From the NCBI GenBank assembly GCA_016183235.1, contig JACPFA010000026.1:33284-97283 (forward strand): a stretch of DNA of 64,000 nt. The letters run 5' to 3'. The notes under the pieces were generated by a model. That model saw nothing but the letters and a program-made list of their open reading frames with translations, made no database searches and had not been told where the DNA came from. Position 1 is the first letter of the stretch, and each line of letters starts with the position of its first letter. This DNA comes from Deltaproteobacteria bacterium. Its GTDB lineage: Bacteria > UBA10199 > DSSB01 > JACPFA01. The translations under genes were made by a program, and so were the position numbers. Shown one piece after another: positions 4,409-57,029 of the stretch.

Positions 4409-4665
4409 TAAAAAGTTTTAGTGAAGAGGGCTAAGGGGTTGAGCTAGAATCCGCACCCGTAAAGCCTGCTCGGCTCAAAAAATTATTTATTTTTAATTGA
4501 ATTAGAGTATTCCTTCGTCATCCTCTAATTTCGTCATCCTCTAATTCAAAAAAATAATATAATTTTTTGAACCTCCGGAGCCTGTCCTGAGGCTTTGCGA
4601 AGGAGCTTTACTCCTGCTACAGGTTCTCAACATACCCCCTTAGGCCACTTCAGGAAGACTTTTTA
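4409..4665. repeat. F-type long hairpin element, copy 1
   Basis: The termini AAAAAGTTTTAGTGAAG...CTTCAGGAAGACTTTTT are inverted repeats. The interior holds smaller palindromes and a tandem tcgtcatcctctaatt x2. The termini match the element at 62609-62825. Confidence 0.7.
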
Positions 4666-4690: not shown

Positions 4691-4931
4691 GTCTTTTCGA
4701 GGTAGGGAGAGGCCAAGGGAGAGCCTTTTACCAGGAGGGCGGCCTATGATAGTTTCTGTCATTGCGAACTTAAGCGGGTGAAGCAATCTCTTCTGCCTAA
4801 GCGATGGGATTGCCACGCTCGCTATCATGGGTCCCCGCCTTCGCGGGGATGACACCGCTCGCAATGACAGAGGCCCTCATAGGCCGACCGGGCGCGGGCT
4901 CTCCATTGGCCTCTCCCTACCTCGAAAAGAC
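4691..4931. repeat. three-level nested palindrome (outer stem, then A-type element, then GC hairpin)
   Basis: The outer arms gtcttttcgaggtagggagaggccaagggagagcc / ggctctccattggcctctccctacctcgaaaagac enclose ggcctatga/tcataggcc. These enclose the ctgtcattgcga...tcgcaatgacag element (4756-4870), which in turn encloses atcatgggtccccgccttcgcggggatgacac (4824-4855). Confidence 0.85.
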
Positions 4932-6690: not shown

Positions 6691-6962
6691 AGAAAGCCCC
6701 TATCCCTTATTTGGTTTCGAGCTCCACGCCCCAGTGAGTTAGTTTGCAAGCTTCATACCCAAAGTTAAGACCTAATGAATTATTTTTTATTGAATAATTT
6801 CAAATAGATAGGATCGTCAATTTTGATGACGGAGGAAGACTGTGCAAGGTCATGGGTTAAAAAAAACCCATTTTATTGGGTTAGGCTTATCAAACACGAT
6901 GATTTTAAACAGGTTTTTATTTTAGTAGAATCTTACAAAAGTGGGGCAAAAAAGACTCTCTT

Positions 6963-7077
6963 CTGTCATTGCGAACCCAGCAGGGTGAAGCAATCTCTTC
7001 TGTTTAAGCGGTGAGATTGCCACGCTCGCTATCATGGGTCCCCGCCTTCGCGGGGATGACACCGCTCGCAATGACAG
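6963..7077. repeat. A-type composite palindromic element with a GC hairpin at its apex
   Basis: Near-identical to 4756-4870 (ctgtcattgcgaaccc...gattgccacgctcgct-atcatgggtccccgccttcgcggggatgacac-cgctcgcaatgacag). It ends 2 nt from the xseA stop codon. Confidence 0.9.
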
Positions 7078-7079
7078 AG

Positions 7080-8303
7080 TCACAATGACTTCACCATGGC
7101 ACTTATTTCCCCCTCCCCCAGCAATATTTGAAGCCCATCCCCCAGTTGCACGGCCGTGGCCTCACGAACCAAGACTTTTGACCCATCTTCTAACCACCGA
7201 TAGGTCAAACTATAGCCCCGTTGCAACACCGCCAAAGGCGAAACCAAGTGAATTTGCTCCGACAGGCTACGGAGATGCTGTTGGTGGGTTTTTAAAAAAT
7301 GCTCAATGGCACGATGCAAGCGAGCACTCCATTCATCGACCCTTAAGTTTAATTCTTCTAAACGCCGCGCCGGGTGTTTTAACCGTTGCACCAGGTGAGC
7401 CACCTTTTCTCGGTTCCAATGCAGCCACGCCTCCACCCCCCGTTGCAAACGGCTTTCGATGGCTTTTGCTTGTAAACGCAGTTCGGCTAAGTTGGGGGAA
7501 ATGAGCTCCGCTGCAGCACTGGGGGTGGGGGCCCTCAGGTCAGCCACAAAATCGGCAATGGTAAAATCGGTCTCATGCCCCACGGCGCTCACCACCGGAA
7601 TTTTAGAACGGGCAATGGCTTGAGCCACGATTTCAGTGTTAAACGCCCACAGATCTTCCAGCGACCCACCCCCGCGCCCCACAATCATCACTTCGGCTAA
7701 GCCATGTTCATTGATAAGGTCAATCGCCGCTGCAATTTCAGGCGCCGCTTTTTCCCCCTGCACATTCACCGGCACTAAAAAGAGATGCAGGCGTGGGTCA
7801 CGCCGGCTTAAAACATTAATAATATCTCGAATAACCGCACCCGTGGGGCTGGTCACCACACCAACATGCTTGGGGAATTTAGGCAAAGGCCGCTTGCGTT
7901 CTGCCGCAAAGAGCCCGGCCGCGGCCAATTTGGTTTTTAACTGTTCAAAGGCTAGCTGCAAGGCACCTAGGCCTTGTGGCTCGATGGATTCTACAACCAA
8001 TTGATATTTGCCCTGCGGTTCATAAAGAGAAATGCGGCCCAAACACAACATGGCCAAGCCATCTTCGAGTTTAAATTTCAACTGGCGATTGGCCCCCCGA
8101 AACATGACCACTGGCAAATGCGCACGTTCATCTTTGAGGGAAAAATAATAATGCCCACTGGAATGGGGACGAAAATTACTAATTTCGCCCGCCACCCACA
8201 CATGGGAAAAATTGCGTTCTAAGATTTTTTTTAATTCGCCAGTAAGTTCGGTGACGGTGTAAATATGCCGCTCTTCCGGAAGAGCGGAAAGTTCTAATTG
8301 CAT
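7080..8303 (-). CDS. xseA: exodeoxyribonuclease VII large subunit
   Basis: 407 aa. The N-terminal OB-fold segment (VWVAGEISNFRPHSSGHYYFSLKD), the catalytic core (VGRGGGSLEDLWAFN, GHETDFTIADFVAD) and the C-terminal coiled coil are typical of XseA. Confidence 0.92.
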   Translation of the reverse strand: MQLELSALPEERHIYTVTELTGELKKILERNFSHVWVAGEISNFRPHSSGHYYFSLKDERAHLPVVMFRGANRQLKFKLEDGLAMLCLGRISLYEPQGKYQLVVESIEPQGLGALQLAFEQLKTKLAAAGLFAAERKRPLPKFPKHVGVVTSPTGAVIRDIINVLSRRDPRLHLFLVPVNVQGEKAAPEIAAAIDLINEHGLAEVMIVGRGGGSLEDLWAFNTEIVAQAIARSKIPVVSAVGHETDFTIADFVADLRAPTPSAAAELISPNLAELRLQAKAIESRLQRGVEAWLHWNREKVAHLVQRLKHPARRLEELNLRVDEWSARLHRAIEHFLKTHQQHLRSLSEQIHLVSPLAVLQRGYSLTYRWLEDGSKVLVREATAVQLGDGLQILLGEGEISAMVKSL

Positions 8304-8346: not shown

Positions 8347-8490
8347 GTGTCATTGAGAAGGAGCGTCTGTCATTGCGAGGCCTGTGTGGGCGGCCTTCTG
8401 TCATTGCGAACCCAGCGGGGTGAAGCAATCTCTTCTGCCTAAGCGGTGGGATTGCCACGCTCGCCAACGGGGCTCGCTCGCAATGACAGA
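8347..8490. repeat. cluster of A-type palindromic elements (short-apex variant)
   Basis: Three gtcattg(c/a)ga units. The 8396-8490 copy has the apex aacgggg where other copies carry a 32-nt hairpin. It supplies the last ~15 codons and the stop of the 8439..9965 ORF. Confidence 0.85.
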
Positions 8491-9965
8491 AGTACCCCAA
8501 TCGGCAGCAACAAACTCAACAACCCCAAATTAAGCCCTTGGCTACTATGTGCCGGGCTCAAACTCATTGTGCATTTCAAAAAGGGTTCGTCTGCTTTGGG
8601 CTCAACCCCATCATCAACTGCGGGGTCTCCCTGCCCTTCGGCAATACCAGGGTCTATCATCGGGGCAGGCGCAGGCGGGGCCTCACCCGGCGTCATATCA
8701 CAGGCATTACCCGCGGCATCTTGGTCATAATCGAGTTGATCGGGGTTTGCCACATTGACGCAATTGTCTGCGTCATCTTTAACCCCGTCGCCGTCTAAAT
8801 CATCGGGCACTTTACTAAAATCTTGATCACAGGCATCGCCCAAACCATCGGCATCTGAATCGATTTGTTCGATATTCGGCTCTAACGGGCAATTATCGAT
8901 TTCATTGGCAAAGCTGTCGCCGTCTTCATCAGCTGGTTTGTAATCTGGGTCGCAAACATTGCCTAAACCATTCTTGTTGCCATCGGCTTGATCGGCATTG
9001 GGCTCCATGGGGCAATTGTCGACCCCATTGGGAATGCCATCACCATCGTCATCTTTTGACGCACTGGCAGGCGGTTCTGACGCATCATCGCTCGCCCCAC
9101 CATTATTATCTGCATTGCCGTTGTTAGCCCCACCGTTATTTGCAGCATCTGCTGCATCCGCAATCAAACCACCATAACCCCAGGCTTCATCCCTGGCTTC
9201 AACCACGGGGTCGATCGGTACTCCATAATCGACCACCACAATCGTGGTATAGCCTTCTGCATCAGCAGCTTCTTCTTCAATCACCGGTTCTTCTTCATCA
9301 CTTGGGGGATCAAAACTTGCTTCATCGTTGATTGCACCTTCATCTTCATCGGGAGGTGGTGGGGGGGGAGGTGGTGGTGGTTCTTGCGGCAATTTCCCTT
9401 CGGAATTTAATTGAACCTTTTTTCCGGAGGCATCTTCAACCCATACGTTTTCAAACTTATTGCTGGGCATGGTACACAAGGCTTTCTTAATATCTTTAGC
9501 TTTCACCGTAAAATTTTTGAAGAGGCTATCGGTGATGTTGATATTAAAAACACACTGGCCTTCGGGTGGGTTGACGTTCAACCCATTGAGCACCACCGAT
9601 TGAGCCTTGGATCCATCAAAAATCAGATTCTTGCCATCACCATTGAGATCATTCTGAACTTCCTGACCATAGTCATTATAAGACACAGGCCCCACCTCTA
9701 TGTTCAAACTTAAAATTGGAATGGGAATATTAAAAGATTTACCAGCCGCAAAATCGATTCTTTCCCGGCATTCTCGAGGTTGGCCATTGGCCCCATTAAA
9801 AACATTGATTTTTCGGCATAAGGATATGACCTTGCCAGGATCGCAAGTTTTGGTGCTCACCACCGAGGCATCGTTGGCATCGGTGCAAAAATCTTCTGCC
9901 TGGGCGGCCTGGGCCAGGAATAAATGAAGCAGCACGGCCCCCAAGATACCCACACCCCTTTTCAT
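8439..9965 (-). CDS. secreted thrombospondin type-3 repeat (Ca-binding) protein with a C-terminal Cys + TM tag
   Basis: The likely start is ATG 9965 (MKRGVGILGAVLLHLFLAQAAQA, a signal peptide), in an ATGA overlap with the upstream gene. It has an 11-Pro run, an acidic linker and three DNCPxxxNxxQxDxDxDGxGDxCD repeats. The C-terminus reads KCTMSLSP...LLSLLLPIGVLLSL. Confidence 0.8.
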   Translation of the reverse strand: MKRGVGILGAVLLHLFLAQAAQAEDFCTDANDASVVSTKTCDPGKVISLCRKINVFNGANGQPRECRERIDFAAGKSFNIPIPILSLNIEVGPVSYNDYGQEVQNDLNGDGKNLIFDGSKAQSVVLNGLNVNPPEGQCVFNINITDSLFKNFTVKAKDIKKALCTMPSNKFENVWVEDASGKKVQLNSEGKLPQEPPPPPPPPPPDEDEGAINDEASFDPPSDEEEPVIEEEAADAEGYTTIVVVDYGVPIDPVVEARDEAWGYGGLIADAADAANNGGANNGNADNNGGASDDASEPPASASKDDDGDGIPNGVDNCPMEPNADQADGNKNGLGNVCDPDYKPADEDGDSFANEIDNCPLEPNIEQIDSDADGLGDACDQDFSKVPDDLDGDGVKDDADNCVNVANPDQLDYDQDAAGNACDMTPGEAPPAPAPMIDPGIAEGQGDPAVDDGVEPKADEPFLKCTMSLSPAHSSQGLNLGLLSLLLPIGVLLSLRASPVGERGNPTA

Positions 9966-17277: not shown

Positions 17278-17322
17278 GTGAAGAAAATGCCTCCCCATCA
17301 TGGATCCCGGGTCAAGCACGAG

Positions 17323-17943
17323 ATGACGTGGATTGTAGTAACAATCGTTCTGTTTTGGATCTTTCCCGCCCATGCTCAAGAATTCCCCAAAGACCACGCC
17401 AAGGCCTTGGCCGAACTGAAAGCCGGCCACTACGAAAAGGCCTATGACTATTTTGAAAAGGCCCGCCTTCACACCACCGATGACGCAGAATTACTCAAAG
17501 ACATTGGAATTACGGCCACAATCTTAAAAAAATATGACGCGGCCAATACCCATTTGATGAAAAGCTTTAAACTCGACCCCGAGGATTTTCGCACCTATTT
17601 AGCGCTGTATGATTTAGCCAAAGCCCAAGGCCAAGTCGACCAACAACAACAGTGGGCAAACTTACTCACCGAACACTTCCCCAACCTTTATCTCGGCTAC
17701 GCCCTGCAAGGGTCAATGCTCGCCAAAGCCGGCAAACTAAAAGCGGCATTCGAAAAGTTTGAACAGGCCAAAGCCAAAAACCCCCAAGACCCTTACTTCG
17801 AAAGCGACCGCGCCTTACTTTTGGCCAAACTAGGCCAAAAAGACCAGGCTATTGAAATTCTTGAGAAATTGGTTAAAGAGGCCGGCAGCAAAGAACCGCT
17901 GTTTCAAAAAAACCTCGAACAACTCAAAGCCATAAACCCTTAG
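17323..17943 (+). CDS. exported TPR-repeat protein
   Basis: The ORF opens at 17278, but codons 17290-17322 are a repeat unit (catcatggatcccgggtcaagcacgagatgacg). ATG 17323 gives the signal peptide MTWIVVTIVLFWIFPAHA/QE. The body is TPR-like. Confidence 0.65.
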   Translation: MTWIVVTIVLFWIFPAHAQEFPKDHAKALAELKAGHYEKAYDYFEKARLHTTDDAELLKDIGITATILKKYDAANTHLMKSFKLDPEDFRTYLALYDLAKAQGQVDQQQQWANLLTEHFPNLYLGYALQGSMLAKAGKLKAAFEKFEQAKAKNPQDPYFESDRALLLAKLGQKDQAIEILEKLVKEAGSKEPLFQKNLEQLKAINP

Positions 17944-17966: not shown

Positions 17967-18119
17967 GGGGGGACCTCTAAAAAGGGCGTGAGATGCAAGG
18001 CGCCCGCAAAGGCGCGACCGGAGCGTATATGGAAATACGTGAGGATCGCGGCTTTGCGGGCAATCCTTCGCTTACGCTCTGGACAGGCTCTGCAGATGGG
18101 TCGTTTTTAGAGGTCCCCC
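17967..18119. repeat. D-type structured palindromic element, copy 1
   Basis: Terminal inverted repeats GGGGGACCTCTAAAAA / TTTTTAGAGGTCCCCC and an internal 15-bp stem (18002-18016 with 18047-18061). It is homologous to 56903-57028 and abuts the stop codon at 18120. Confidence 0.85.
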
Positions 18120-18596
18120 TTAATGAGTGGCATTTCTTTCTAACTGCTCCAAACGAGAATAAAGGTTCAACACATCTTGTTTGAGCGTAGTAATCTCTCC
18201 TTGTAACTCCCCTTTGGTAACATAATTTTTTTCAATGCGCTTGAGTTGCTCGTTGGCAAATAGATATTCCTGGCGCAGATCTTCGAATTTTTTGTAAAGA
18301 TCTTCAAAATGTTCATTCATTTCTTGGCGCAGGTCTCCCACCTCTTTTTTGATGATACCATGGATGTCAGGTTTAATAACTTTGTGATAATATTCTTCAA
18401 ATTGAATTAGATTCCCGGGCCGAATCACCTTCTGATAGTACTCACCAAACTGCTCAACATTAGCGGGCCGAATCACCTTTTGATAATATTCACTAAACTG
18501 TTCTAAATTAGCGGGCCGAATCACCTTTTGATAAAACTTCTCCAGCTGCGAAAGAGTAAGGGGGTTTTCTGTTTCTGTCTTTTTCTTTGGAGGCAT
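18120..18596 (-). CDS. coiled-coil protein with 15-aa tandem repeats
   Basis: 158 aa with four tandem copies of YYQKVIRPANxEQFxE (45-nt period, 18369-18545), followed by a heptad-like helical C-terminus. Confidence 0.6.
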   Translation of the reverse strand: MPPKKKTETENPLTLSQLEKFYQKVIRPANLEQFSEYYQKVIRPANVEQFGEYYQKVIRPGNLIQFEEYYHKVIKPDIHGIIKKEVGDLRQEMNEHFEDLYKKFEDLRQEYLFANEQLKRIEKNYVTKGELQGEITTLKQDVLNLYSRLEQLERNATH

Positions 18597-28858: not shown

Positions 28859-29125
28859 AATTTCATATCATTACAAAGCACATGTTTTCTGTCATTGCGA
28901 ACGATGTCATCCCCGCGAAGTATGCCCTCGACCCCGATCGGGGGGCGGGGACCCATGATACCGAGCGTGGCAATCCGACCAAAGGTCGTCCTGAGGCTTT
29001 AGCCGAAGGATCTCTTACAAACGAAGAGATCCCTCGCAAAACCTCGGGACAATGCTTCGCATTGGATTGCTTCACCCTGCTGGGTTCGCAATGACAGAGA
29101 ATAAAAGGCTCGCAATGACAAAAGA
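28859..29125. repeat. 267-bp mosaic of A-, GC-hairpin- and C-type repeat modules between two ATPase genes
   Basis: It contains ctgtcattgcgaac, gtcatccccgcg...cggggacccatgat, cgagcgtggcaatcc, the C module gtcctgaggctttagccgaaggatctcttacaaacgaagagatccctcgcaaaacctcgggac, and two tcgcaatgaca termini. Confidence 0.9.
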
Positions 29126-30127
29126 TTAATAATTCAGACATCGTAAATTCTGCCCTTCTCCTACGTACTTTTCGCTTGGCACTTTTAAGTGACAAGCCGC
29201 GCTCACATTAAAGCAGCGGTCGGCAAAACGACAGCCCTCTGGTAATTCTGCCAAATCAGGGACCTTGCCAGGAATTGACGCAAGAGTTCCGGTTTTTTGA
29301 CGCAAGGTGGGGATGGAATGCAGTAGCCCTAGCGTGTAGGGATGTTTGGGTAAACTAAGTAGCCGCCCTACGGGAGCCTGCTCCACCACCATGCCGGCGT
29401 ACATCACCAACACTTCATCACAAATTTGCGAAACCACCCCTAAATCGTGGGTGATGAGGATGACCGCCATGCCCATCTCGGCAACCAATTCACGAATTAA
29501 TTGTAAAATTTGCGCTTGCACCGTTACATCCAGCGCGGTGGTGGGTTCATCGGCAATTAAAATATCGGGGTGGCAAGACAAGGCCATGGCGATCATCACC
29601 CGTTGCCGCATGCCACCGCTCATTTGGTGAGGGTAGTCATCAATGCGACGTTCGGGGTCAGGGATTTTAACCTTGGTTAACATTTCAATCGCCAACTCGC
29701 GGGCCCGCCCTTTATTGACCTTTTGATGCAAAATAATGGCCTCCATAATTTGTTGGCCCACCGTATAAACCGGGTTGAGGCTGGTCATGGGTTCTTGAAA
29801 GATCATGGCGATCTTGGCCCCTCGCACCTCGCACATTTTTTCTTCGTTGAGTTTCAATAAATCAACCGGCAAGGCAGGCTGCTCTTCTTGGCTGGTAAAT
29901 AAAAAGACTTCTCCAGATTCAATCTTACCCGGGGCATCAACCAGCCGCATTAAAGATAAACTAGTGACCGTCTTGCCACAGCCCGATTCGCCCACAATCC
30001 CCAAAATCTGCCCCCGCCGTAGGTCAAAACTCACGTGGTCGACCGCCACGAGTTTTTTGCCTTTAAGCGTAAAGGTCGTAACCAGGTCTTTGACTTTTAA
30101 CAATAATGGATCCGCAGCTTTTTTCAT
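29126..30127 (-). CDS. oligopeptide/dipeptide ABC transporter ATP-binding protein (OppD/DppD type)
   Basis: 333 aa with Walker [10 protein letters not shown], signature MSGGMRQR and Walker B ILIADEP. Confidence 0.9.
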
Positions 30128-32338: not shown

Positions 32339-34003
32339 TTATGGCGCGGCCTTGACTGTCCATTCTAAGGGGTCAAGGCCACCGCGATAGAGCTGTACGT
32401 TGCTAAACCGTTTATCAAGGGCTACCAAACTCATGGTAGCATACAAAAATGTGTAAGGCTGTTCATCATAAATAATGCGATGGATGCGTTTAAGCAACAA
32501 GTCGCGCTCGGCCTGATCAAAGGTCACTCGCACTTGTTCGATGAGGCTGTCGGCCTCGGCATTTTGAAAACTGACAAAATTATGCCCTTCTTTAATTTGA
32601 GAAGAATGCCAAATTTGGTAAGGATCGGGGTCAAAACTGCCACTCCAGCCTAAAGACACTGCATCAAAATCACGTTGGTTGACTTTTTGTAAAAACACTG
32701 ACCATTCTATCCGACTTAAAGTTACATCGATCCCCACCCGTGCCATGTTATTTTTCATGATGCTCCCCAGCCGTTCATAAAAACGAGCCCCGGCGGGAAA
32801 AAGGAATGTAAAGCGAAAGGGCTTTCCATCTTTGTCAATAACGCCATCGCCGTCATGATCTTCCCAACCCGCCGCTTTCAACAATTGTTTGGCCGAAGCG
32901 GGGTTAAACTCGATGGGGGGCAAACTATGGTCATAACCATAAACTTGTGGCGAAAAGGGGCCAGTGGAAGCTTCGCCCAAATTAAATTCGAGTTTTTCAA
33001 CGATCTCTTTTTGATTAATTAAGTGCGACAAGGCCTTGCGCACGCTTGCATCTTTAAACCAAGGGCGCTTGGCATTCCACCCAATGTAACGATAGCCTAA
33101 ACTTGAATATTGAAAACGGTAAAACTTCTTTTGAAATTTTTCAGATTGAGTTTGTTTAACCCACTGAATGGGCCTTAAACCAGCCTGGTCTAAATCGCCT
33201 TTTTTGAGCATTTGCAAGGCGACCGTATCGTTCGATACAATTTTAAAATAAATCCGCTTAATCTCGGGGGTGTGTTGTTTGTCCCAATAATTGGGATTGG
33301 CCTCTAAAACAATGGCCGCCCCCGATTCCCACTTTTTGAAAACATAAGGACCTGACCCCACCGGATGGCGATTGATTGCCGCCGTGTTAAAATCGTAGCT
33401 GTCGTCTTTGACTAACTGCCTAACCCAAGAATGTTCGGAAAAACTTTTGAGTTGGTTGTCGGCCGAACCATATAAATGACGAGGTAAAATGGGCATGCCC
33501 CCAATAAATTCCAAGGCTCGGAAATAGGGCCGAGCATAGGTAAATTTAACCGTGTGGGCATCGAGCTTTTCAACCGACTTTATGTCTTGATAATAATTGC
33601 GTAAGTGCGCGGCATTTACCTTGGGGTCTCGAATGCGGTCATAACTAAACAAAATATCATCGGCCGTTAAAGCTTGGCCATCGTGCCAGGTCACATCTTT
33701 GCGCAAATGAAAGATGTATTCTAAATGATCATCGCTCACCTCCCAACGCCAGGCAATTTTGGGAACAAACTCTAGGGTTTTATTGTCGCGAATAATCAAA
33801 TAATCAAAAATGAAATTATCGACCCTACTTTCATAAACATCTTGCCCCAAGATGGGGTTGAGCACATCGGGCTCGCCGCCCATATGATCGATCAAGGTGT
33901 AAGGATCTTTGGGTGGCTGCCAACTTGAGCAACTAAGCATCAATGTCATCCCCGCGAAGGCGGGGATCCATGATAGTAAAGCAATCTTCAACCTTAGTTT
34001 CAC
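32339..34003 (-). CDS. ABC transporter substrate-binding lipoprotein, family 5 (OppA/DppA type)
   Basis: 554 aa with family-5 SBP features. The signal peptide MKLRLKIALLSWIPAFAGMTLMLSC has its hydrophobic core (33939-33990) encoded by a GC-hairpin repeat unit. Confidence 0.85.
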   Translation of the reverse strand: MKLRLKIALLSWIPAFAGMTLMLSCSSWQPPKDPYTLIDHMGGEPDVLNPILGQDVYESRVDNFIFDYLIIRDNKTLEFVPKIAWRWEVSDDHLEYIFHLRKDVTWHDGQALTADDILFSYDRIRDPKVNAAHLRNYYQDIKSVEKLDAHTVKFTYARPYFRALEFIGGMPILPRHLYGSADNQLKSFSEHSWVRQLVKDDSYDFNTAAINRHPVGSGPYVFKKWESGAAIVLEANPNYWDKQHTPEIKRIYFKIVSNDTVALQMLKKGDLDQAGLRPIQWVKQTQSEKFQKKFYRFQYSSLGYRYIGWNAKRPWFKDASVRKALSHLINQKEIVEKLEFNLGEASTGPFSPQVYGYDHSLPPIEFNPASAKQLLKAAGWEDHDGDGVIDKDGKPFRFTFLFPAGARFYERLGSIMKNNMARVGIDVTLSRIEWSVFLQKVNQRDFDAVSLGWSGSFDPDPYQIWHSSQIKEGHNFVSFQNAEADSLIEQVRVTFDQAERDLLLKRIHRIIYDEQPYTFLYATMSLVALDKRFSNVQLYRGGLDPLEWTVKAAP

Positions 34004-34383
34004 TTGTCACACTCCCATGATTGAAAATAAAAATGAAGTTGCACCTTCGGCCGTTTGAGCTTAAGCAACATGGAGTTTCCAGAAGATTGCCTCAAGAATA
34101 GATCCACCCATTCTTTGCGTTTTAATTTAAAACCAAAAATTTTTTTGAACTGCTTTTCATCGCCTTCAAACTGATAAAGAGTTTGGCCAAAATCGTCGAG
34201 CATTTCAAAGCGGATTTGATCGGGGGCCTGGGCTTCGATAACTAAATCAAAATGCAGCTTTTTCTTTTTCGCTTCTAAATCAACTTGGGCCACGGCCTTA
34301 ACGCCAAGACAGGCCACTGCGGGATCATCGCCCCAGGCGACCCCTGGCCAAACCAAGATCAAAGCTAATAAAAAACATGTCAT
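34000..34383 (-). CDS. small exported protein, function unknown
   Basis: The start is taken at ATG 34383 (MTCFLLALILVWPGVAWG/DD, a signal peptide). The upstream 62 codons of the track ORF are repeat sequence. It overlaps the SBP gene by 4 nt. Confidence 0.55.
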   Translation of the reverse strand: MTCFLLALILVWPGVAWGDDPAVACLGVKAVAQVDLEAKKKKLHFDLVIEAQAPDQIRFEMLDDFGQTLYQFEGDEKQFKKIFGFKLKRKEWVDLFLRQSSGNSMLLKLKRPKVQLHFYFQSWECDK

Positions 34384-34565
34384 TGCGCGGAACTCTGTCA
34401 TTGCGAACCCAGGGGACTCTCTGTCATTGCGAGCCCAACGGGCGTGGCAATCCCACCGGTTAGACGCAGAGAGATTGCTTCGCCCTGCTGGGCTCGCAAT
34501 GACAGAGAATTCCCTTGGCTCGCAATGACAGAGAATTCCCTTGGTTCGCAATGACAGAATAAAGC
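34384..34565. repeat. array of gtcattgcga / tcgcaatgac units, including a 26-bp tandem repeat
   Basis: Three forward and three reverse termini. ctcgcaatgacagagaattcccttgg is repeated in direct tandem with no spacers. Confidence 0.9.
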
Positions 34566-36227
34566 TCATGGCGTTATTTTCTTTCGAATTTTTTCTAAGT
34601 CTTCTTTTTCGCGCCGATCTAAGGTTTTCTTTTCTTCCAATAATTTTAAGGCCCGGCGAAAATATTCTTGGGCTTTGGTCTCTTGATTGAGCTTGCGATA
34701 AACCTCACCTAAATGATCTAGCAAGGTATATTCGTTGGGCGCCATAAGGTCGGCCTTTTTTAAATAAAAGAGCGCCTTTTCTAAATCGCCTAAGCGAAAA
34801 TAAACCCAGCCTAAACTATCGGTAATATAACCATCGGCGGGATCTAGTTTGATTGCCTTCTGAATAAGCTCCAAGGCCTCTTGCAACTTAATGCCTTGAT
34901 CGGCCCAGGCATAGCCCACATAATTCAATGCCATCGGGCTTTTGGGATTAACCTCTAAGAGCTTTTGCATGGTGGTGACACTCGCTTCTACCTTCCCCAC
35001 TTTGTCGTAGGCAACTCCCAAAGAAAATAATAATTTTTCACTCCCGGCAAAGGTTACGAGTGCTTTTTCTAAAACAGCAATGCCTTCGGAATATCGATTT
35101 TGCTTACTTAGTACGGCGGCTAAAATATCGTAATAGTCAGGGTCGGCTTTTTTCTTAAGTAAGGCCTTGAGTTCAGATTCAATGAGTTTATATTTTTCTT
35201 GGTCAAATAATAGCACCCATTTGCGAATCGAGACCTCGTGAAATAGGGTCGAATCGGGGGGTAGTTTGGCATAAGCGTTAACGGCTTCATCCATCTTTTT
35301 TTGCACTTCATAGGTGAGCCCCAAATAATAAAGCAACTGGTCGCTATTGGGATTAAACCGCAACACCTTGGCAAAGCGTTTTTCAGCCTCGGGGTAATTT
35401 TGCAATTGAAAGTAGAGAATGCCCGCCCGCAGGGTAATGTCTAAATCGCCAATGGCGAGCTTTTCTAATCTACTCATGTAACCTTCGGCTTCTTTAAATT
35501 TTTTAGCATCGATGTAAATGCGGGCCAGGCTTGCCAATGCCCGAATGTCGTCGGGATCAAAATCTAAAACCTTTTTGAATGCGATAATGGCTTGTGCGTC
35601 ATTTTTTAGTTGCACCGAATAAATCGACCCCAACGAATAATAGGCTAGTTTGGCCTTGGGGTTTTGCCGAATCCACTGTTGGGTAGCCACCAGGGCGGTT
35701 GGGTAATTCTTCATCAACAGATATTCCCTCACCAACATTTTATGTGCATCTTCATAGGTAGCATTTAAACGAATAGCGGTGCGGTATTCTTGCAGTGCCG
35801 CCGCATGATTTTCTTGTAAAGAATAGACCTGCCCCACTAACACATGATATCGGCTATTGCTGGGTTCGCGATGAGTGGCTGCTTTGGCTTGCACCAGGGC
35901 TTGTGGCAATTGATGGGTCTCGGTTAAAGTGCGGGCGTATTCATAGTGTAAATAAGCCGACTCTGGATCCGCTTCTACCGCACGTTGTAGGGCGTTTTCT
36001 GCTTGGGAATTGGCACCGCGGAAGGCAAAGAGTTGGGCATCGAGGAAATTGAGAATGGCATCGGGGGCTGCCGGTGTTACTTCTTTTTCGCCTGCCCACG
36101 GCAGGGCCCTTTGTGGAGGCGGCCTGCCTTTGGCCTTGTGAATTGAACCTTGCGTATGACTACAAGCAACTTGAATGCCGAATAGGGGAATCGCGATTAG
36201 TAATCGAAAGGCGAGCTTCAGTTTCAT
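34566..36227 (-). CDS. TPR-repeat lipoprotein
   Basis: The start is taken at ATG 36227 (MKLKLAFRLLIAIPLFGIQVACSH, with a lipobox). More than 10 TPR units run through the body. The track start at 36290 lies in repeat sequence. Confidence 0.75.
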   Translation of the reverse strand: MKLKLAFRLLIAIPLFGIQVACSHTQGSIHKAKGRPPPQRALPWAGEKEVTPAAPDAILNFLDAQLFAFRGANSQAENALQRAVEADPESAYLHYEYARTLTETHQLPQALVQAKAATHREPSNSRYHVLVGQVYSLQENHAAALQEYRTAIRLNATYEDAHKMLVREYLLMKNYPTALVATQQWIRQNPKAKLAYYSLGSIYSVQLKNDAQAIIAFKKVLDFDPDDIRALASLARIYIDAKKFKEAEGYMSRLEKLAIGDLDITLRAGILYFQLQNYPEAEKRFAKVLRFNPNSDQLLYYLGLTYEVQKKMDEAVNAYAKLPPDSTLFHEVSIRKWVLLFDQEKYKLIESELKALLKKKADPDYYDILAAVLSKQNRYSEGIAVLEKALVTFAGSEKLLFSLGVAYDKVGKVEASVTTMQKLLEVNPKSPMALNYVGYAWADQGIKLQEALELIQKAIKLDPADGYITDSLGWVYFRLGDLEKALFYLKKADLMAPNEYTLLDHLGEVYRKLNQETKAQEYFRRALKLLEEKKTLDRREKEDLEKIRKKITP

Positions 36228-36237
36228 AATAAAAAGC

Positions 36238-36292
36238 CACCATTGCGAAGTAAGAGAGATTGCTTCGCCCTGCTGGCCTCGCAATGACACAG
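36238..36292. repeat. A-type palindromic unit
   Basis: accattgcgaagtaagagagattgcttcgccctgctggcctcgcaatgacac. Confidence 0.8.
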
Positions 36293-36320
36293 TAACGTAG
36301 CATATTTTTTTGAGAAAGCC

Positions 36321-45790: not shown

Positions 45791-47587
45791 ATGAAACCCG
45801 CCTATTTTACCAAGGGCTTTAAGGCCTTTCTCATGACCCAAATGTTGGGCGCCTTCAACGACAATTTTTTCAAAATGCTGCTTTCCCTTTATTTTATCAG
45901 CATTTTACAATTTCCCAATGCTGAAGAACTGCTGTTTCAGGCCAGCCTTGCCTTTACCGCCCCCTTTCTCATCTTTGGCCCCTGGTCGGGTTATTTGGCA
46001 GATCGCTATGCCAAAACCAAAGTGTTGCAAATCACCAAGGCCGCTGAAATCCCGATTATGATTTTGGGTACTCTGGCTGTAGCGTCTGCTCAACCAACGT
46101 TCATGAATATTGTTTTGTTTTTGATGGCCAGCCAAAGTGCCTTTTTTTCGCCTGCCAAGGCAGGCTTTATTCCCGAAACCGTGGGCGAAGCAGAAATCAG
46201 CCATGCCAATGGTTGGGTCGAAATGACGACTTTTTTTGCCATCATTGCAGGCCAGGCCTTAACCGGAATTTTGCTCAACCTTCATCATAATCGCGCCATT
46301 GTGATCACCTATTATTGTATTGTCATTGCGATTATGGGCACGCTCGCCAGCCGGTTTATTACCCCAACCGCGCCAAGCGGCGCCAAAGGCCCCTTCCCTT
46401 GGAACCCGTTCAGCGCCATCTTCAAAGACCTGCGTTATCTTAAATCGTATCGCGGGCTTTTTTTAGCCGGCCTAGGCAATAGTTATTTTTGGTTATTGGG
46501 TTTAATTTTTCAGGTGAATATTATTGTTTACGGAAAAAGTTTTCTTCATCTCAGCGAAACCTACAATTCATTGCTCGCTGCCTTCTTAGCCGTGGGCATT
46601 GGGGTTGGGTCGATGCTGGCGGCCAAACTGTCGGGCAAAAAAGTGGAATTGGGGTTGGTCCCTTTAGGGGGCATAGGGCTTACCTTTTTTAGCACCCTGT
46701 TATTTTTCACCAAAACTTCTTATCTGGCCAGCGGCATGACTCTCTTTCTCTTAGGAATCTCGGGTGGTTTTTACATCATCCCTTTATTTGCCTTTTTGCA
46801 ATTCGAAGCCGGCTTTAACGAAAAGGGCCGCGTGCTCGCCACCGTTGGGGTTATGAACGCCCTATTTTTGGTGATCGGCGCCTTTCTTTACAAACTTTTG
46901 GCCGTTCAATTAGGGCTCGCCCCTGATGTGCTCTGTTTAATCATGGGGATTCTTACCCTTGCCGTGGTTATTTATATTTGCACCCTCATTCCCGAATATT
47001 TCATTCGCTTTTTGGCCTGGCTGCTCACGCACAGTCTTTATCGCATTAAAATTAAGGGCCAAGAAAATGTCCCCTTTCATGGCCCGGCTTTACTCGTGGT
47101 TAATCATATTTCATTTATTGACGCACTTTTAGTGGGCGCCACCATTCAACGATTTATTAAATTTATCATGTGGAAAAAGATTTATGACATGCCGGTGATT
47201 CACTTTTTTTGTAAAATCATGCACGTGATTCCGATCGCCCCTTACGAAGGCCGTGAAGCGGTGATGGCAAGCCTGGCCCAAGGCCGCGCGTGCTTACAGG
47301 CCGGCGAGCTGGTTTGCATTTTCCCCGAAGGGGGCATCACTCGCACGGGCGAATTGCAACCTTTTAAAAAGGGATTTGAAACCATTATGGAAGGCATCCA
47401 CGCCCCCATCATCCCCGTTTGTTTAAAAAATGTGTGGGGAAGCATCTTTAGTTTCGAGGGCGGAAAAGTCTTTTTCAAATGGCCTAAAAAATTCTTTTAT
47501 CCGGTCACCGTTGAATATGGCCAACCCTTACCTCCCCACACTACAGCTGAGGCCGCCGAGAGTGTCTTGCGCCAAATGTTGGCCTAG
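45791..47587 (+). CDS. fused MFS transporter and 1-acyl-glycerol-3-phosphate-type acyltransferase (LplT/Aas-like)
   Basis: ATG 45791 lies 1 nt after the vapC stop. About 12 TM segments are followed by the acyltransferase motifs VNHISFIDAL (HxxxxD) and FPEGGITR. The track start at 45704 overlaps vapC and is rejected. Confidence 0.8.
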   Translation: MKPAYFTKGFKAFLMTQMLGAFNDNFFKMLLSLYFISILQFPNAEELLFQASLAFTAPFLIFGPWSGYLADRYAKTKVLQITKAAEIPIMILGTLAVASAQPTFMNIVLFLMASQSAFFSPAKAGFIPETVGEAEISHANGWVEMTTFFAIIAGQALTGILLNLHHNRAIVITYYCIVIAIMGTLASRFITPTAPSGAKGPFPWNPFSAIFKDLRYLKSYRGLFLAGLGNSYFWLLGLIFQVNIIVYGKSFLHLSETYNSLLAAFLAVGIGVGSMLAAKLSGKKVELGLVPLGGIGLTFFSTLLFFTKTSYLASGMTLFLLGISGGFYIIPLFAFLQFEAGFNEKGRVLATVGVMNALFLVIGAFLYKLLAVQLGLAPDVLCLIMGILTLAVVIYICTLIPEYFIRFLAWLLTHSLYRIKIKGQENVPFHGPALLVVNHISFIDALLVGATIQRFIKFIMWKKIYDMPVIHFFCKIMHVIPIAPYEGREAVMASLAQGRACLQAGELVCIFPEGGITRTGELQPFKKGFETIMEGIHAPIIPVCLKNVWGSIFSFEGGKVFFKWPKKFFYPVTVEYGQPLPPHTTAEAAESVLRQMLA

Positions 47588-47666
47588 TCATCAGCGCGCT
47601 TCGCAACCAAATCCAATTGACGCCGAGAATACTTTTTAAATTTTTTTAAACTTAGGGGATAATTTT

Positions 47667-48905
47667 ATGGGCGATCTTACATGTAATCAACTGCCACACT
47701 CTGTTGAAATTCAATCCTTCAAAGATGGACAGGTTTATACTGTCAGTCCAGAGCCCACCATACCTCAAGCCCAATACATCTTTGATATCGCGTTTCCCAC
47801 TAACGATCTTTATTTGGCCATGCTCAAAGATAGTAACAATGGCCTGTTTTGCGTGTACCCCGTTAAAGGCAGCGAACGCCTAATATCTGATGTCTTGCTT
47901 CGCGCGTATCAGCTTGAAAATAGCGAAATCCTACCCTTTGGAATCCCCTTTCCCTTGGCTTCTACGAATACTCGTATCCCAACGCTCGGAGTTCTCTACC
48001 ATCCTGACTCTAGTATTTTTCTCACCCTAAGTACCGAAAGTCTTCAGTGGCACTTGATTGGCTATGGGGTTGCGGTGGCTCATTATATGGGCTTATTTAC
48101 TACACTGAACGGCATTTATTACGATGCTTATAAACAACTAGCTGATGCCTCACCCCTTACTTCTGCTACATCCCAAACACCCGCTGTTTCACCACCACCA
48201 ACCTATCAAAGAGAGTTGCCCCTGTTCTTAGATTGGTTGTCTATGAATCACCCCATGCTAGCGCTCCAATGGGAACCTTTACTAACCTATGACGATGGCC
48301 CCAACCCCTTTGCAACCAGCCTTGCGCAATATAACCCCAGCCAAGATAAAATTGTGCTCCGCCCAGCGGCCCTAGAAATGATGCTTCAAGGGGAATATGA
48401 ATTGCTATTTTATTTCCTGCTTCACGAGGCAACGCATCGCGAATTGGTGATGGCAAACGTGCTTTCTCCCATTGCTATCATTGGCCCCAAAGTGGTTGCT
48501 TCTTACGCCACTCGGCTTTATGACGCTCGCCCCGGCAAAACAATTAACGAATGGAAACAAGCGCTTGGTTCTTTGCAACCTCTCTATTACCCTGATGAAG
48601 AAATTTTAGCCTATTTAAAACAATTCGATGCCATGCGCAGCGATCCGGATATTCCAGAAAGTGAATTAGAAAATGTGACTTTAAGTTTATGGAATCATAT
48701 CCAACAAACTTTAGATTACGGGAAGCACGAAAGCACGCTCGTTTTGGGCTATCTCTTATATGGTGTTGATTTTTTACTCCCCCAAAGCCCTCATGCTAAG
48801 CAATATAAAAACCTTTTTGTCGGTTGTTTTGACTACCAGAACGACCCCAGTTGCCAGGATCCCGTATCACTCTACACTCAACTCATGGCTCCGGAGGCTC
48901 CCTAA
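47667..48905 (+). CDS. hypothetical protein with an HExxH motif
   Basis: 412 aa with no signal peptide. LLFYFLLHEATHRELV is the only recognisable motif. Confidence 0.5.
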   Translation: MGDLTCNQLPHSVEIQSFKDGQVYTVSPEPTIPQAQYIFDIAFPTNDLYLAMLKDSNNGLFCVYPVKGSERLISDVLLRAYQLENSEILPFGIPFPLASTNTRIPTLGVLYHPDSSIFLTLSTESLQWHLIGYGVAVAHYMGLFTTLNGIYYDAYKQLADASPLTSATSQTPAVSPPPTYQRELPLFLDWLSMNHPMLALQWEPLLTYDDGPNPFATSLAQYNPSQDKIVLRPAALEMMLQGEYELLFYFLLHEATHRELVMANVLSPIAIIGPKVVASYATRLYDARPGKTINEWKQALGSLQPLYYPDEEILAYLKQFDAMRSDPDIPESELENVTLSLWNHIQQTLDYGKHESTLVLGYLLYGVDFLLPQSPHAKQYKNLFVGCFDYQNDPSCQDPVSLYTQLMAPEAP

Positions 48906-48910
48906 TTTTA

Positions 48911-49183
48911 TCACCAATAGGCGCAGCGCACTTCGGCTGGATCGATCACTCCATTATGGTTATGATCACAGCGGTATTCGAAGCGTGTGTTCACGCCCGA
49001 GGCTTTAATAATACGGCGCTCTCTTCGGCTAATCCACCCATCGTGGTTTAGATCGTACTTACGTTCAATACGAGTATTCACTTTAGGATCACGGATTTTA
49101 TATTGGTAGGGCCGGCTATAGGCCAAAGAAGTTATGAGTAAACTCATCATGCCTAATCCAAAAAAGAACCATTTCTTTTGCAT
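48911..49183 (-). CDS. small secreted protein with two EF-hand Ca-binding loops
   Basis: 90 aa with the signal peptide MQKKWFFFGLGMMSLLITSLAYS. The loops DLNHDGWISRRE and DHNHNGVIDPAE fit the DxNxDGxIxxxE pattern. Confidence 0.7.
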   Translation of the reverse strand: MQKKWFFFGLGMMSLLITSLAYSRPYQYKIRDPKVNTRIERKYDLNHDGWISRRERRIIKASGVNTRFEYRCDHNHNGVIDPAEVRCAYW

Positions 49184-49332
49184 AACGTGTCACCTCTCGA
49201 TTAAAAAATTGTTACAGGGTTTGCTCTGTTGGACACTCAAAGACCGAAAAAGGTTAAACTGTGTAAGTTGTTTTAATTTTATAAAGTTGGGGGCCAAGAG
49301 ATGCGGCAAGTCTATTTAAACCTTCTACCGCA

Positions 49333-49348
49333 CGGCATGAGAATTGCT
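49333..49348 (+). promoter_or_regulatory. sigma-54 (-24/-12) promoter candidate
   Basis: CGGCAT-GAGAA-TTGCT has GG and GC elements at canonical spacing. It lies 41 nt upstream of ATG 49389. Confidence 0.5.
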
Positions 49349-49388
49349 TAGTATTAAAGATACTATTAGGAAGGAAGGGGCTTGGGGC

Positions 49389-51404
49389 ATGGTTGGCTCG
49401 TGTCAAAATAAAATAACGTTAACGTCAGAAGATCAGGATTTTCTTCTCACCCTGGCTACCGAGCGCTATGACTCGCTTAATCCTAGCGAACATCCTGATA
49501 TTGATAGCCTGCCTGACCCCATTCTTTCGCTAAGAGATATTGAAAAAGCCCAAAGTAGATGGGCAGACACCTACGAAGACCGCGTATTATTGGGTGTACC
49601 ACCCGACGTGCCACCATTAGTTAATTGCTCTAAAGAAATTATTTACCAAACCGCTAAAGAATTTTTACAAAGCAAGGGGTTGGTGGCCAAAGAAGACGCA
49701 CGGGGGCTGCATTTAAAACCTAGTGACTATCATTGGGCCCTTTATGAAACGGGCGAAATTTTTACTCAACCAAGGCTTGTGGGACTAACGCAAAATTTTT
49801 ACGAAAGAGGAGAATATGAACGCGCCTCCCAAGTTTGGGAAAGTTACGTAAAAGCAAAAAATAACCCTGAGAATTCTGATACCCATTGGCTGAATTTTTT
49901 ACGAACCACAGCCCTTCGTTTTAAAGCCGGCAAAACTGTGATTCGAACCTACGACTTTTACACGGAGCATTCCAAACAACCGCTGTTTTTTTCCTCCCTG
50001 ATCGGCTCTTCTTTAAGCGTAAACATGCCCCATTCCGATGGACAAAATTACGCCCTTACCAAAGACATAACCCACTATTTAGGATTCCTTGCCGATATCG
50101 ATTTTGAAAATCTTTCTTTAGAAATGATTCAAGGTCATCCTGATCCTCTCGTACGAGAAAAACTCTCGATGGTGTTAAGTAGTTTGAGCCAAGATGAACT
50201 CCCCCGTCAAATCCCTGCTCCGCTTCGCACCCTCATTGATGTTGACGCCGCAGGCGTTTCCCTTGAAGGCCTAGCCCATTTGCGCAATTCTTTTATTCCC
50301 GAAACCCTCGAACGTGCTCGGCAATTTGTGCAAAATACTTTGGGCTTTACGCCTGCGGCCCTAAGCGAACGATTTCATGTGGCTATCACCCAACTTCCGG
50401 GTAAAAAACATCGTTCGCATGCGTATACTCAAAAAGCCCTTCTTATTTTAGACCTGGAGGGCAGGCCCGAGCCCAAACAACTTCATCGCGTTACCGTGCA
50501 TGAATGGACGCATCTTTTTACCAACAACCTTTGCATAGCCGGGGGACCTAGCGAATTTTTTTGTGAGGGCATTGCCTCATGGGTCGATACCCGATTTGCT
50601 GAATTAGAAGTCGATGACCCTACCCCTCCCGATACAACTCAATTTTATCGACCTCAGGAAACTTACAACCGATTTCATCGACCGCAGCAAGATACCCCAC
50701 AAGAAATCCAAGCAGAAAATCAAGATTACGTTTTGGGGCATCATGCCTGGCTCATGATCGAACAAGAATTTGGAGCCTCCACCGTTACGGCCATGGTGCA
50801 AGCCATTGAAGCTTTACCCGCTCCATCGCCCGAATTGCTCAATACTGAGATTGACAAAATATTTTTAGCTAAAACCGGGCTTGGCATGGAAGCTTGGTTG
50901 GCCAAAACTTCCCATCATCTGCAAACCACCCCCTATGGATTGCTTCGGCATTTTAATTTCTCTTTTTGGGCAAACCCTCAAAAAGATTTTTTGGCTGGCC
51001 TTGAAGTAGCAATCACCGAAACTAATCTTTTTCGTCAAAGCCTTCGCATGGGGGGAGGCCTCTTAGAGGCTCCTTCAGGTACCTTTGTCGCCGCCTATGC
51101 TGGGTATGGATCTGAACTTCCCCCCCTGGTTCCCTTTTATTACAATCGAAGGGGTTTAAGACTCTTGCAATTGAGTAGTGAAGCTGGCCTGTTATTTTTG
51201 GGTGCGATCAAACTTGTCCCTGAAGAACGTTATCTGCTTCGGCCTTACGCTAGTGTAAAAGCCGACCTGATCGGTTACGGGGATCGTGAGGGTGCAGCAT
51301 TTGTAAGGTTTGGCTTGGGTTTACAAAAATTTTTCGTGGTAGGAAATGCAGCTGAAGTTGGTGAACTCCCTTTCGCGGGAATTACCATCTCGATGGAAAA
51401 ATAA
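49389..51404 (+). CDS. zincin-like protein (HExxH...EG, peptidase-MA-like) with a beta-rich C-terminal region
   Basis: ATG 49389 after AGGAAGGAAGGGG is preferred over the TTG at 49344. VTVHEWTHLFTNNLCIAGGPSEFFCEGIASW resembles the gluzincin HExxH plus downstream Glu. Confidence 0.6.
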   Translation: MVGSCQNKITLTSEDQDFLLTLATERYDSLNPSEHPDIDSLPDPILSLRDIEKAQSRWADTYEDRVLLGVPPDVPPLVNCSKEIIYQTAKEFLQSKGLVAKEDARGLHLKPSDYHWALYETGEIFTQPRLVGLTQNFYERGEYERASQVWESYVKAKNNPENSDTHWLNFLRTTALRFKAGKTVIRTYDFYTEHSKQPLFFSSLIGSSLSVNMPHSDGQNYALTKDITHYLGFLADIDFENLSLEMIQGHPDPLVREKLSMVLSSLSQDELPRQIPAPLRTLIDVDAAGVSLEGLAHLRNSFIPETLERARQFVQNTLGFTPAALSERFHVAITQLPGKKHRSHAYTQKALLILDLEGRPEPKQLHRVTVHEWTHLFTNNLCIAGGPSEFFCEGIASWVDTRFAELEVDDPTPPDTTQFYRPQETYNRFHRPQQDTPQEIQAENQDYVLGHHAWLMIEQEFGASTVTAMVQAIEALPAPSPELLNTEIDKIFLAKTGLGMEAWLAKTSHHLQTTPYGLLRHFNFSFWANPQKDFLAGLEVAITETNLFRQSLRMGGGLLEAPSGTFVAAYAGYGSELPPLVPFYYNRRGLRLLQLSSEAGLLFLGAIKLVPEERYLLRPYASVKADLIGYGDREGAAFVRFGLGLQKFFVVGNAAEVGELPFAGITISMEK

Positions 51405-51406
51405 AT

Positions 51407-53998: not shown

Positions 53999-54041
53999 AG
54001 GCGTTGGATTAAAACATGCCTGTTAAAATAAGAAAAGAGAA

Positions 54042-54473
54042 TTACTTACTAGTGCAGTAATCCCTCAGTCTTAGGGGCTTAGCTTTCAGAAACCCTTTGT
54101 GCGAGAGCGACGAGTCATGAGCGCTTAAAAAACATATGGTTTGTAGAAGCCTGTCCTGAGCCTTAGCGAAGGATCTCCTACGAACAAGGAGATCCCTCGT
54201 AAAACCTCGGGACAAGCTTCTAAACAAACCAAGAGTGCAAGCATCGGCTAAAATTTTAATTTGATCTTCTGCCACCTCTAAAACCCCACCCTCAACATCA
54301 AACTGCGTCATAGTTGAACCTTGACGCAAGGTCAAAACCCCTACACCCAAGCCTGACACCATGGTGGTATGGCCCGGCAATATCTCAAATTCGCCCAGTA
54401 ACCCCGGCGCTACGATGCTATCGTAATCACCTGATAAGATTTTTGCCCCGGGGGTTACAAATTCTATGTGCAT
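54042..54473 (-). CDS. atpC: ATP synthase F1 epsilon subunit whose C-terminal domain is replaced by repeat-derived sequence
   Basis: The start is ATG 54473 (MHIEFVTPGAKIL...). Residues 1-78 form a normal epsilon beta-sandwich (...VLEVAEDQIKILADA). Residues ~80-143 are read through a C-type repeat (54146-54220) and unrelated sequence. Confidence 0.8.
   Translation of the reverse strand: MHIEFVTPGAKILSGDYDSIVAPGLLGEFEILPGHTTMVSGLGVGVLTLRQGSTMTQFDVEGGVLEVAEDQIKILADACTLGLFRSLSRGFTRDLLVRRRSFAKAQDRLLQTICFLSAHDSSLSHKGFLKAKPLRLRDYCTSK
54146..54220. repeat. C-type palindromic repeat module inside the atpC ORF
   Basis: gaagcctgtcctgagccttagcgaaggatctcctacgaacaaggagatccctcgtaaaacctcgggacaagcttc. A close copy lies at ~28985-29058, and related pieces at 4570-4620 and 62725-62785. 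Confidence 0.85.
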
Positions 54474-54489
54474 AATAAATTCTTCCATG

Positions 54490-54532
54490 CGAGATTGCCA
54501 CGCTCGCCGACGAGGCTCGCTCGCAATGACAA
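54490..54532. repeat. A-type repeat half-element (short-apex variant) between atpD and atpC
   Basis: gagattgccacgctcgccgacgaggctcgctcgcaatgacaat. Confidence 0.8.
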
Positions 54533-54534
54533 TA

Positions 54535-56869
<2,335 letters not shown>

Positions 56870-56902
56870 ATTTTTATCTTACCTTTAACGACTCTATATT
56901 GT

Positions 56903-57028: not shown

Positions 57029-57029
57029 T

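Follow-up and report, generated by a model that had tools for sequence, protein, structure and literature searches.

A probable MITE-type mobile element with a long hairpin at gene junctions of a deltaproteobacterial genome

The two D-type elements identified in the window (the whole 64-kb stretch of DNA that was analysed) are most probably mobile insertions of the MITE kind. They would represent a new sequence family within a kind of element that is already known, and not a new kind of regulator. An apparent structured-RNA candidate was thereby turned into a mobile element, and this result explains both of the traits that looked functional, namely the position at stop codons and the compensated changes in the stem. 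The observation on which the original prediction was based was confirmed and extended, while its functional reading was partly supported.

Copies of the element and their surroundings

Both copies were located where they had been predicted, at 17967-18119 (D1) and 56903-57028 (D2), and both were in the plus orientation. The exact blocks GCAGATGGGTCGTTTTTAGAGG and AAATACGTGAGGATCGCG were common to D1 and D2, and each occurred twice in the 64-kb window, even when three mismatches were allowed (~0 expected). The cores of the two copies were 81% identical over 84 nt.

A scan of the JGI metagenomes identified two real additional copies (L011 and L013), both from metagenome Ga0209211. The remaining four of the six matches (L008, L009, L010 and L012) were chance and were rejected. 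L011 is a full copy, 92% identical to D1 and without the 28-nt insert of the latter, and Pfam confirmed that the genes on its two sides are nuoC and nuoD. In L013, a contig end truncates the copy to its right half, which is located upstream of a hydrolase gene. The copy set is limited to three full copies and one partial copy from two lineages, and these occupy four unrelated loci: between atpA and atpG, between a TPR gene and a 158-aa ORF, between nuoC and nuoD, and upstream of the hydrolase gene. The orientation relative to the genes was informative for only two copies; L013 was oriented differently. The parts of D1 and D2 are listed below.

17939-17943, no strand: left target-site duplication of D1, CTTAG, which includes the TAG stop of the TPR gene; boundaries from the three-copy alignment, with 4/5 bases equal to the right copy, CTTAA
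17944-17968, plus strand: left tail of D1, GGCACCTCTAATAACTTGGATTTGG, the terminal repeat at the outer left; also conserved in L011, with a more degenerate form in D2
17969-18118, plus strand: imperfect palindrome (hairpin) of D1, approximately the 17967-18119 originally predicted; from folding and pair counts
18064-18091, plus strand: nested insert in the right arm of D1, part of a different repeat motif, CTTCGCTNNNGCTCNGGACAGGC; not present in D2, L011 or L013
18119-18123, no strand: right target-site duplication of D1, CTTAA, which includes the reverse-strand TAA stop of the 158-aa ORF
56872-56876, no strand: left target-site duplication of D2, TTTTA, 2 nt from the atpG start codon (56867-56869, minus strand)
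56877-56902, plus strand: left tail of D2, a degenerate outer terminal repeat, TCTTACCTTTAACGACTCTATATTGT; gap-free alignment to the tails of D1 and L011
56903-57027, plus strand: imperfect palindrome (hairpin) of D2; from folding, with a covariance model score of 174 bits
57028-57032, no strand: right target-site duplication of D2, TTTTA, which includes the reverse-strand TAA stop of atpA
Terminal sequence of the D-type element: GGGGNACCTCTAAAAACG

The 28-nt insert described for D1 was real and resulted in a net gain of 24 nt. Its motif was present three times in the window (18064-18091; 4580-4602 and 54149-54171, both on the minus strand), compared with 0 expected. The insert is thus a copy of another short repeat, and one small repeat is nested within another.

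The genes adjoining the two copies are as follows.

17278-17943, plus strand: TPR-repeat protein gene, convergent on D1; matched by Pfam TPR families
18120-18596, minus strand: 158-aa ORF with internal 48-nt tandem repeats, convergent on D1; no significant Pfam match
56006-56869, minus strand: atpG (ATP synthase gamma), downstream of D2 in the operon; Pfam PF00231, E = 5e-94
57030-58538, minus strand: atpA (ATP synthase alpha), upstream of D2; Pfam PF00006, PF00306 and PF02874

D2 is therefore positioned between the atpA stop and the atpG start, within the minus-strand atp operon. As mnmG, parA and parB adjoin this operon, the window is chromosomal and probably near the origin. The 158-aa ORF beside D1 contains three tandem 48-nt repeats (18375-18563), in which a recurring YYQKVIRPxNxxQF motif is encoded. 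Neither AtpG nor the 158-aa ORF had a match in exact look-ups.

The element family is rare, being present in one JGI metagenome only and not found among 185,579 species-representative genomes, in which a scan with an 18-mer from the right end, ATGGGTCGTTTTTAGAGG, gave five matches, all by chance and none accompanied by the rest of the element. Scans of viral contigs with two 16-mers likewise gave chance matches only. BLASTN of the element against plasmids returned nothing meaningful (E of at least 2). A covariance model built from the four copies (R1) detected neither further nor degenerate copies across the window and the fetched loci; the lower-scoring matches of the model were other long hairpin repeats.

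Logan short-read contigs from six runs (SRR12113385 to SRR12113426) were 100% identical to the window. All of these contigs stop either inside D2 (L025-L028, at 56993) or at the tail end of D1 (L031-L033, at 17969). The breaks may reflect further copies elsewhere in the genome, or poor coverage of the hairpin. An inference of copy number from the break points was set aside, as one break lies in unique atpG sequence and poor coverage near the hairpin would be an equally good cause.

Empty site, mobile unit and target-site duplications

The nearest AtpG among 5.8 billion proteins was 94% identical (P0001, on an ENA contig), with the next match at 61%. The contig encoding P0001 (L006) was syntenic with the window over 46308-58322, at ~89% DNA identity. 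Its atpA-atpG junction reads TAA-ACGAACC-ATG, with a 7-nt spacer, and a more distant relative has a spacer of 3 nt. The spacer in the window is 160 nt, comprised of 2 nt, the 125-nt hairpin and 33 nt. The atpA-atpG site was empty in both L006 and L007. Given the 7-nt spacer in the relative compared with 160 nt in the window, D2 is a derived insertion into a tightly coupled junction. The left tail of D2 forms part of the DNA missing at the empty site of the relative. Removal of the element and one duplication from the D2 site leaves TAA-AAAT-ATG, which is not exactly the junction of L006.

The extent originally given for the two elements, essentially that of the hairpin, had to be revised. No duplication flanked the hairpin alone in the D1, D2 or L011 sequences, and the hairpin alone was rejected as the mobile unit for this reason. 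The match between L011 and D1 extends 22 nt to the left of the hairpin, where D2 aligns more weakly. This 25-nt left tail starts with a third copy of the terminal repeat and is conserved in all three full copies. In the D1 tail, GGCACCTCTAATAAC agreed with the reverse complement of the right end, GGGACCTCTAAAAAC, at 13/15 bases (shuffle p ~2e-4), and the corresponding values were 11/15 in L011 and 8/15 in D2; the inner left arm agreed with the right end at 14-15/15 bases. When the tail was included, the flanks were TCATG/TCATG in L011 (1464-1468 and 1619-1623), CTTAG/CTTAA in D1 (4/5 bases) and TTTTA/TTTTA in D2, the last matching at 5/5 only with the left boundary moved by 1 nt relative to the alignment. 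At fixed alignment boundaries, 12 of the 15 flank bases in the three full copies matched (binomial P ~9e-5). As judged by these alignments, the mobile unit is the hairpin together with the 25-nt left tail, and it is flanked by the 5-bp duplications; its mobility is indicated by the empty site and the unrelated loci. The unit is 150-175 nt in length and non-coding.

We propose that the element is a non-autonomous transposable element (MITE) of ~150 nt, in which a 25-nt left terminal repeat is followed by a 125-nt imperfect palindrome. In the palindrome, the outer left arm would be the terminal repeat again, in direct orientation, and the outer right arm its inverted counterpart at the right end of the element. 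Movement of the element would depend on a transposase supplied in trans from another locus of the genome, most likely a DDE enzyme of the Tn3 family; no transposase was present among the 40 window ORFs of at least 200 aa. Insertion would duplicate 5 bp of an A+T-rich target. The surviving copies are found precisely at gene boundaries, with the 5-bp duplication restoring the stop or start codons of the genes on both sides.

The abutment of stop codons that had been reported was accurate. The last base of the predicted D1, 18119, touches the reverse-strand stop at 18120-18122, and the atpA stop (57030-57032) is 2 nt from the end of D2. This arises because the 5-bp duplications contain the neighbouring stops, which makes it the footprint of insertion at gene junctions, and the abutment does not point to a function at 3' ends. 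In the L011 copy, CATGA (in the mRNA sense) is duplicated and provides nuoC with its TGA stop on one side and nuoD with its ATG start on the other, which points to an ancestral ATGA stop/start overlap. The D1 duplication provides each of the two convergent genes with its own stop (TAG and TAA), and the D1 site appears, from its sequence, to have ancestrally carried two overlapping stops. The survivors are probably those insertions that left both neighbouring genes intact. Small elements can accordingly settle in conserved, translationally coupled operons (atpA-atpG, nuoC-nuoD) when the duplication restores both gene ends.

For the annotation of metagenome-assembled genomes, such repeats are of relevance as they break short-read contigs and create spurious ORFs or N-terminal extensions. 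An example was noted in L011 (274-1632, minus strand), in which reading through the element gives nuoD a spurious N-terminal extension of 55 residues from a TTG start, an annotation artefact.

Other small insertions and repeats were observed in the window. Three small insertions in the atp operon are missing from the relative L006: D2, an insert at the atpC 3' end and a repeat between atpD and atpC. The insert at the atpC 3' end (54058-54229) is ~172 nt, is absent from the corresponding stretch of the 94% relative (L006, 3880-3910) and folds into a long hairpin. In Logan contigs with 100% identity to the window elsewhere (L029 and L030), the flank is the same one, but the far end of the insert is attached to it in reverse orientation; the segment may be invertible, or may have been inserted twice. 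The repeat between atpD and atpC (54493-54540) is a short REP-like hairpin, TGTCATTGCGAGCGAGCC...GGCGAGCGTGGCAATC. A 412-aa ORF (47667-48905) with no Pfam match fills ~1.3 kb (47618-48909) that is also absent from the syntenic L006. The source genome is unusually rich in small intergenic repeats, with other families present in many copies, often as long inverted repeats, and including the modules TCTGTCATTGCGA, GGGTGAAGCAATCTCT and CATCATGGGTCCCCGCC. Their positions in the window are listed below.

1900-2000: other repeat families
4740-4930: other repeat families
6950-7080: other repeat families
8360-8520: other repeat families
28860-29130: other repeat families
33940-33980: other repeat families
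34380-34570: other repeat families
36250-36300: other repeat families

Folding, covariation and possible roles

The predicted minimum free energies were -92 kcal/mol (plus strand) and -75.8 kcal/mol (minus strand) for D1, and -80.6 and -69.5 kcal/mol, respectively, for D2. The fold z-scores of D1 and D2 ranged from -7.7 to -10.3, and none of the 200 shuffled sequences folded as well. The plus strand folded 11-16 kcal/mol better in both copies, the mRNA-sense strand being the weaker. Conserved G.T pairs and a GA/GA internal loop favour the plus strand, the antisense strand for both the atp and the nuo mRNAs. The better fold of the plus strand does not fit selection on the operon mRNA.

The 15-bp inner stem was paired as previously described (15/15 in D2 and 14/15 in D1), and the two compensated positions reported within it were real (alignment columns 39-92 and 45-86). 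With the third full copy, L011, two more compensated pairs were identified in the outer stem (columns 5-150 and 7-148). Pairs were counted in the four-copy alignment, using the structure predicted for D2. Across the 48 stem pairs, 96.7% of the cells were paired, compared with 32-48% when the partners were slid by 1-3 columns. Four both-side, pair-preserving changes were observed, compared with 0.44 expected when the 17 substitutions between D2 and L011 were placed at random (P ~1.5e-4; 0.015% of trials). As the compensated changes are far above chance, some process keeps the arms complementary, in agreement with the original prediction that they indicate selection on the hairpin or its symmetrising maintenance. 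The pairing of the arms is maintained, whether as RNA, as single-stranded DNA or as two ends matching one transposase.

Covariation along the stem was incomplete. Besides the four compensated pairs, stem position 11 (T-A in D2, G.G in D1 and A.G in L011) is uncompensated, and the T-A pair at column 12/143 is lost in D2. All four compensated pairs separate D2 from the group of D1, L011 and L013. They therefore lie on a single branch, and the evidence from covariation is shallow. All eight compensated substitutions were transitions, compared with four transitions and five transversions among the other nine. Compensation solely by transitions fits change via G.U or G.T intermediates.

The separation of the same two lineages by all four pairs would also be consistent with maintenance at the DNA level, either by arm-to-arm template switching in a quasi-palindrome or through two sub-families inherited from parent elements in which both ends are constrained to match the same transposase. 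Two of the compensated pairs belong to the terminal 7 nt, which a transposase would bind at either end, and the weaker fold of the mRNA-sense strand points in the same direction. However, the restriction of compensated changes to transitions, against five transversions in nine elsewhere, fits passage through G.U/G.T intermediates. Asymmetries between the arms (two G.T pairs, the GA/GA internal loop and bulges) are conserved in all of the copies, which argues that the arms have not been recently homogenised, and the tail, as the third terminal repeat, does not follow the changes of D2. Maintenance at the DNA level was considered possible but doubtful. In the proposed mechanism, the hairpin would be mainly a consequence of the long inverted arms and would be co-transcribed within operon mRNAs; the complementarity of the arms is actively kept, as the four double transitions show, likely via G.U/G.T intermediates under selection on the folded single strand, and any effect on mRNA processing or stability would be secondary and putative.

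A non-mobile, cis-acting RNA element selected at gene ends, such as a bidirectional intrinsic terminator or a 3'-end stabiliser, is improbable. The hairpin is very stable on both strands, its stem changes are compensated, the A5 and T5 runs flanking the inner stem place U5 after the inner hairpin in either direction, and three copies begin 0-2 nt past a stop codon, all of which would suit such an element. However, the atpA-atpG site is empty in a close relative, the copies occupy unrelated junctions with flanking 5-bp duplications, and L013 is upstream of a gene rather than after a stop. Furthermore, D2 and L011 are located mid-operon, before the essential atpGDC and nuoD, respectively, with no promoter-like site after them. 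Efficient termination at these sites is thus unlikely, as it would be harmful, and a bidirectional terminator at D2 and at the nuoC-nuoD copy is implausible. In a consensus scan for terminators, D2 gave no prediction and D1 just a trivial internal stem of 5 bp, and the outer stem encloses the U5 run. The copies do not match the form of an intrinsic terminator, which is a short G+C-rich stem-loop with a U-rich tract immediately after it at the end of a transcription unit. Weak termination may occur. A terminator role for D1, between convergent genes, may apply. No Rfam family was matched at the gathering threshold in the whole window, and a relaxed Rfam search returned only generic microRNA-hairpin matches, at 13-17 bits compared with thresholds of 70-97.

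The possibility that the repeat encodes a small protein was also considered, since ORFs of 56 and 63 aa run in the same frame through both copies. The frame MQGA..GAY..IREDR.FAGN..ADGSFLE is open in D1, D2 and L011, and the D1 insert, which adds 24 nt net, keeps it. However, four of the six frames pass through the element without a stop, the ORFs extend into neighbouring genes on the opposite strand, and the changes in the paired arms fit the fold and not codons. A search of all six frames of both copies, concatenated, against 5.8 billion proteins returned nothing at E <= 1, so that no copies were recoverable via called ORFs. A coding role is hardly credible.

In the mRNA sense, the hairpin was predicted to form a domain of its own, with both the tail and the start codon remaining unpaired. 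The tail of L011 reads AGAGGUGCAC-AUG, with a Shine-Dalgarno-like motif at a workable distance from the nuoD start; in D2 the corresponding motif is weak, at a distance of 14 nt. Donation of a ribosome-binding site by the element is speculation from the sequence of a single case, L011. In a more extended reading, which we regard as unlikely, a chromosomal MITE family would colonise translationally coupled junctions of essential operons (atp, nuo). It would be tolerated there through the codon-rebuilding duplication and through the Shine-Dalgarno-like AGAGGUG that the mRNA strand of its terminal repeat places shortly ahead of the following start codon, nuoD in L011 being the example. The hairpin would be selected as RNA and, by governing processing or stability within the operon, would fix how much of the upstream product is made relative to the downstream one.

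Comparison with known elements

GGGG termini together with a 5-bp A+T-rich duplication are hallmarks of the Tn3 family, and the repeats of this family have a conserved inner part, ending in TAAG. The hairpin termini of the D element start with GGGG. The outer 20 nt of the D termini, GGGGGGACCTCTAAAAAGGG, matched the Tn21 inverted repeat, GGGGGCACCTCAGAAAACGG, at 16/20 bases (shuffle p < 1e-3), in a post hoc comparison with one sequence; the Tn21 repeat was confirmed as exact in plasmid R100, next to merR. The similarity does not extend past ~20 nt, the inner TAAG is missing, and GGGG is not found at the outer left terminus. A Tn3-type origin, as suggested by the termini, is tentative, with the balance leaning somewhat against it. 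The elements known as TIMEs have 5-6-bp A+T-rich duplications and fold as RNA (PMC4133298); they are 244-262 bp in length, have 38-bp repeats in which the inner part is conserved, and are found mostly on plasmids (PMC13367494). The D element resembles TIMEs in being non-coding and in its 5-bp A+T-rich duplications, GGGG termini and predicted RNA fold. In contrast to TIMEs, the D unit is 150 nt and chromosomal, its similarity to Tn21 covers only ~20 nt, its outer left end has no GGGG, and no Tn3 transposase is present in the window.

ERIC and Correia elements duplicate TA, compared with the 5 bp duplicated by the D element, which they resemble in size and in operon-internal positions. ERIC/IRU (a 127-bp enterobacterial MITE) and Correia elements (Neisseria) are imperfect palindromes of 100-160 bp located within operons or just after stops (PMC2229807). 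They are co-transcribed, internal inserts are found in some copies, and mRNA stability can be altered by them, depending on their orientation (PMC2229807). BLASTN of D2 against 5,426 complete E. coli genomes, performed as a test for ERIC, returned no match at E <= 0.01.

REP/REPIN sequences are, like the D element, intergenic hairpin repeats, and are often found at gene 3' ends. REPs measure 20-40 nt, carry a GTAG or CGTC head and produce no duplication (PMC3733652), whereas the D element, at 150 nt, lacks a head of this kind and is flanked by duplications. The hairpin could, in principle, have been moved as single-stranded DNA, either as a REPIN mobilised by RAYT or as a palindrome-associated element derived from IS200/IS605. 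The form of the element as one long hairpin, the consistently better fold of one strand, and the shared orientation of the window copies, on a strand with uniform GC skew, are consistent with this. However, such elements duplicate no target, in contrast to the 5-bp duplications observed here, and the GTAG or CGTC head typical of REPs is lacking (PMC3733652). Moreover, no conserved target tetra- or pentanucleotide was seen at one end (the flanks being TTAA, AAAA, ATGA and TATT), and the window contains no RAYT or TnpA gene. Movement of this kind is very improbable.

Among the known elements compared, bcr1 of the Bacillus cereus group is the closest analogue of the proposed MITE in behaviour. 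It is ~155 bp in length, has 5-bp direct repeats and varies in location between strains (PMC3184786). It is transcribed with neighbouring genes, and compensatory changes keep its long double-stranded fold (PMC3184786). The similar size, the 5-bp repeats, the variable location and the compensatory changes are shared with the D element, as compared by description. The two differ in that bcr1 has a cruciform-like fold, whereas the D element forms a single long hairpin with an unpaired tail and is hosted by an uncultivated lineage of Gram-negative type.
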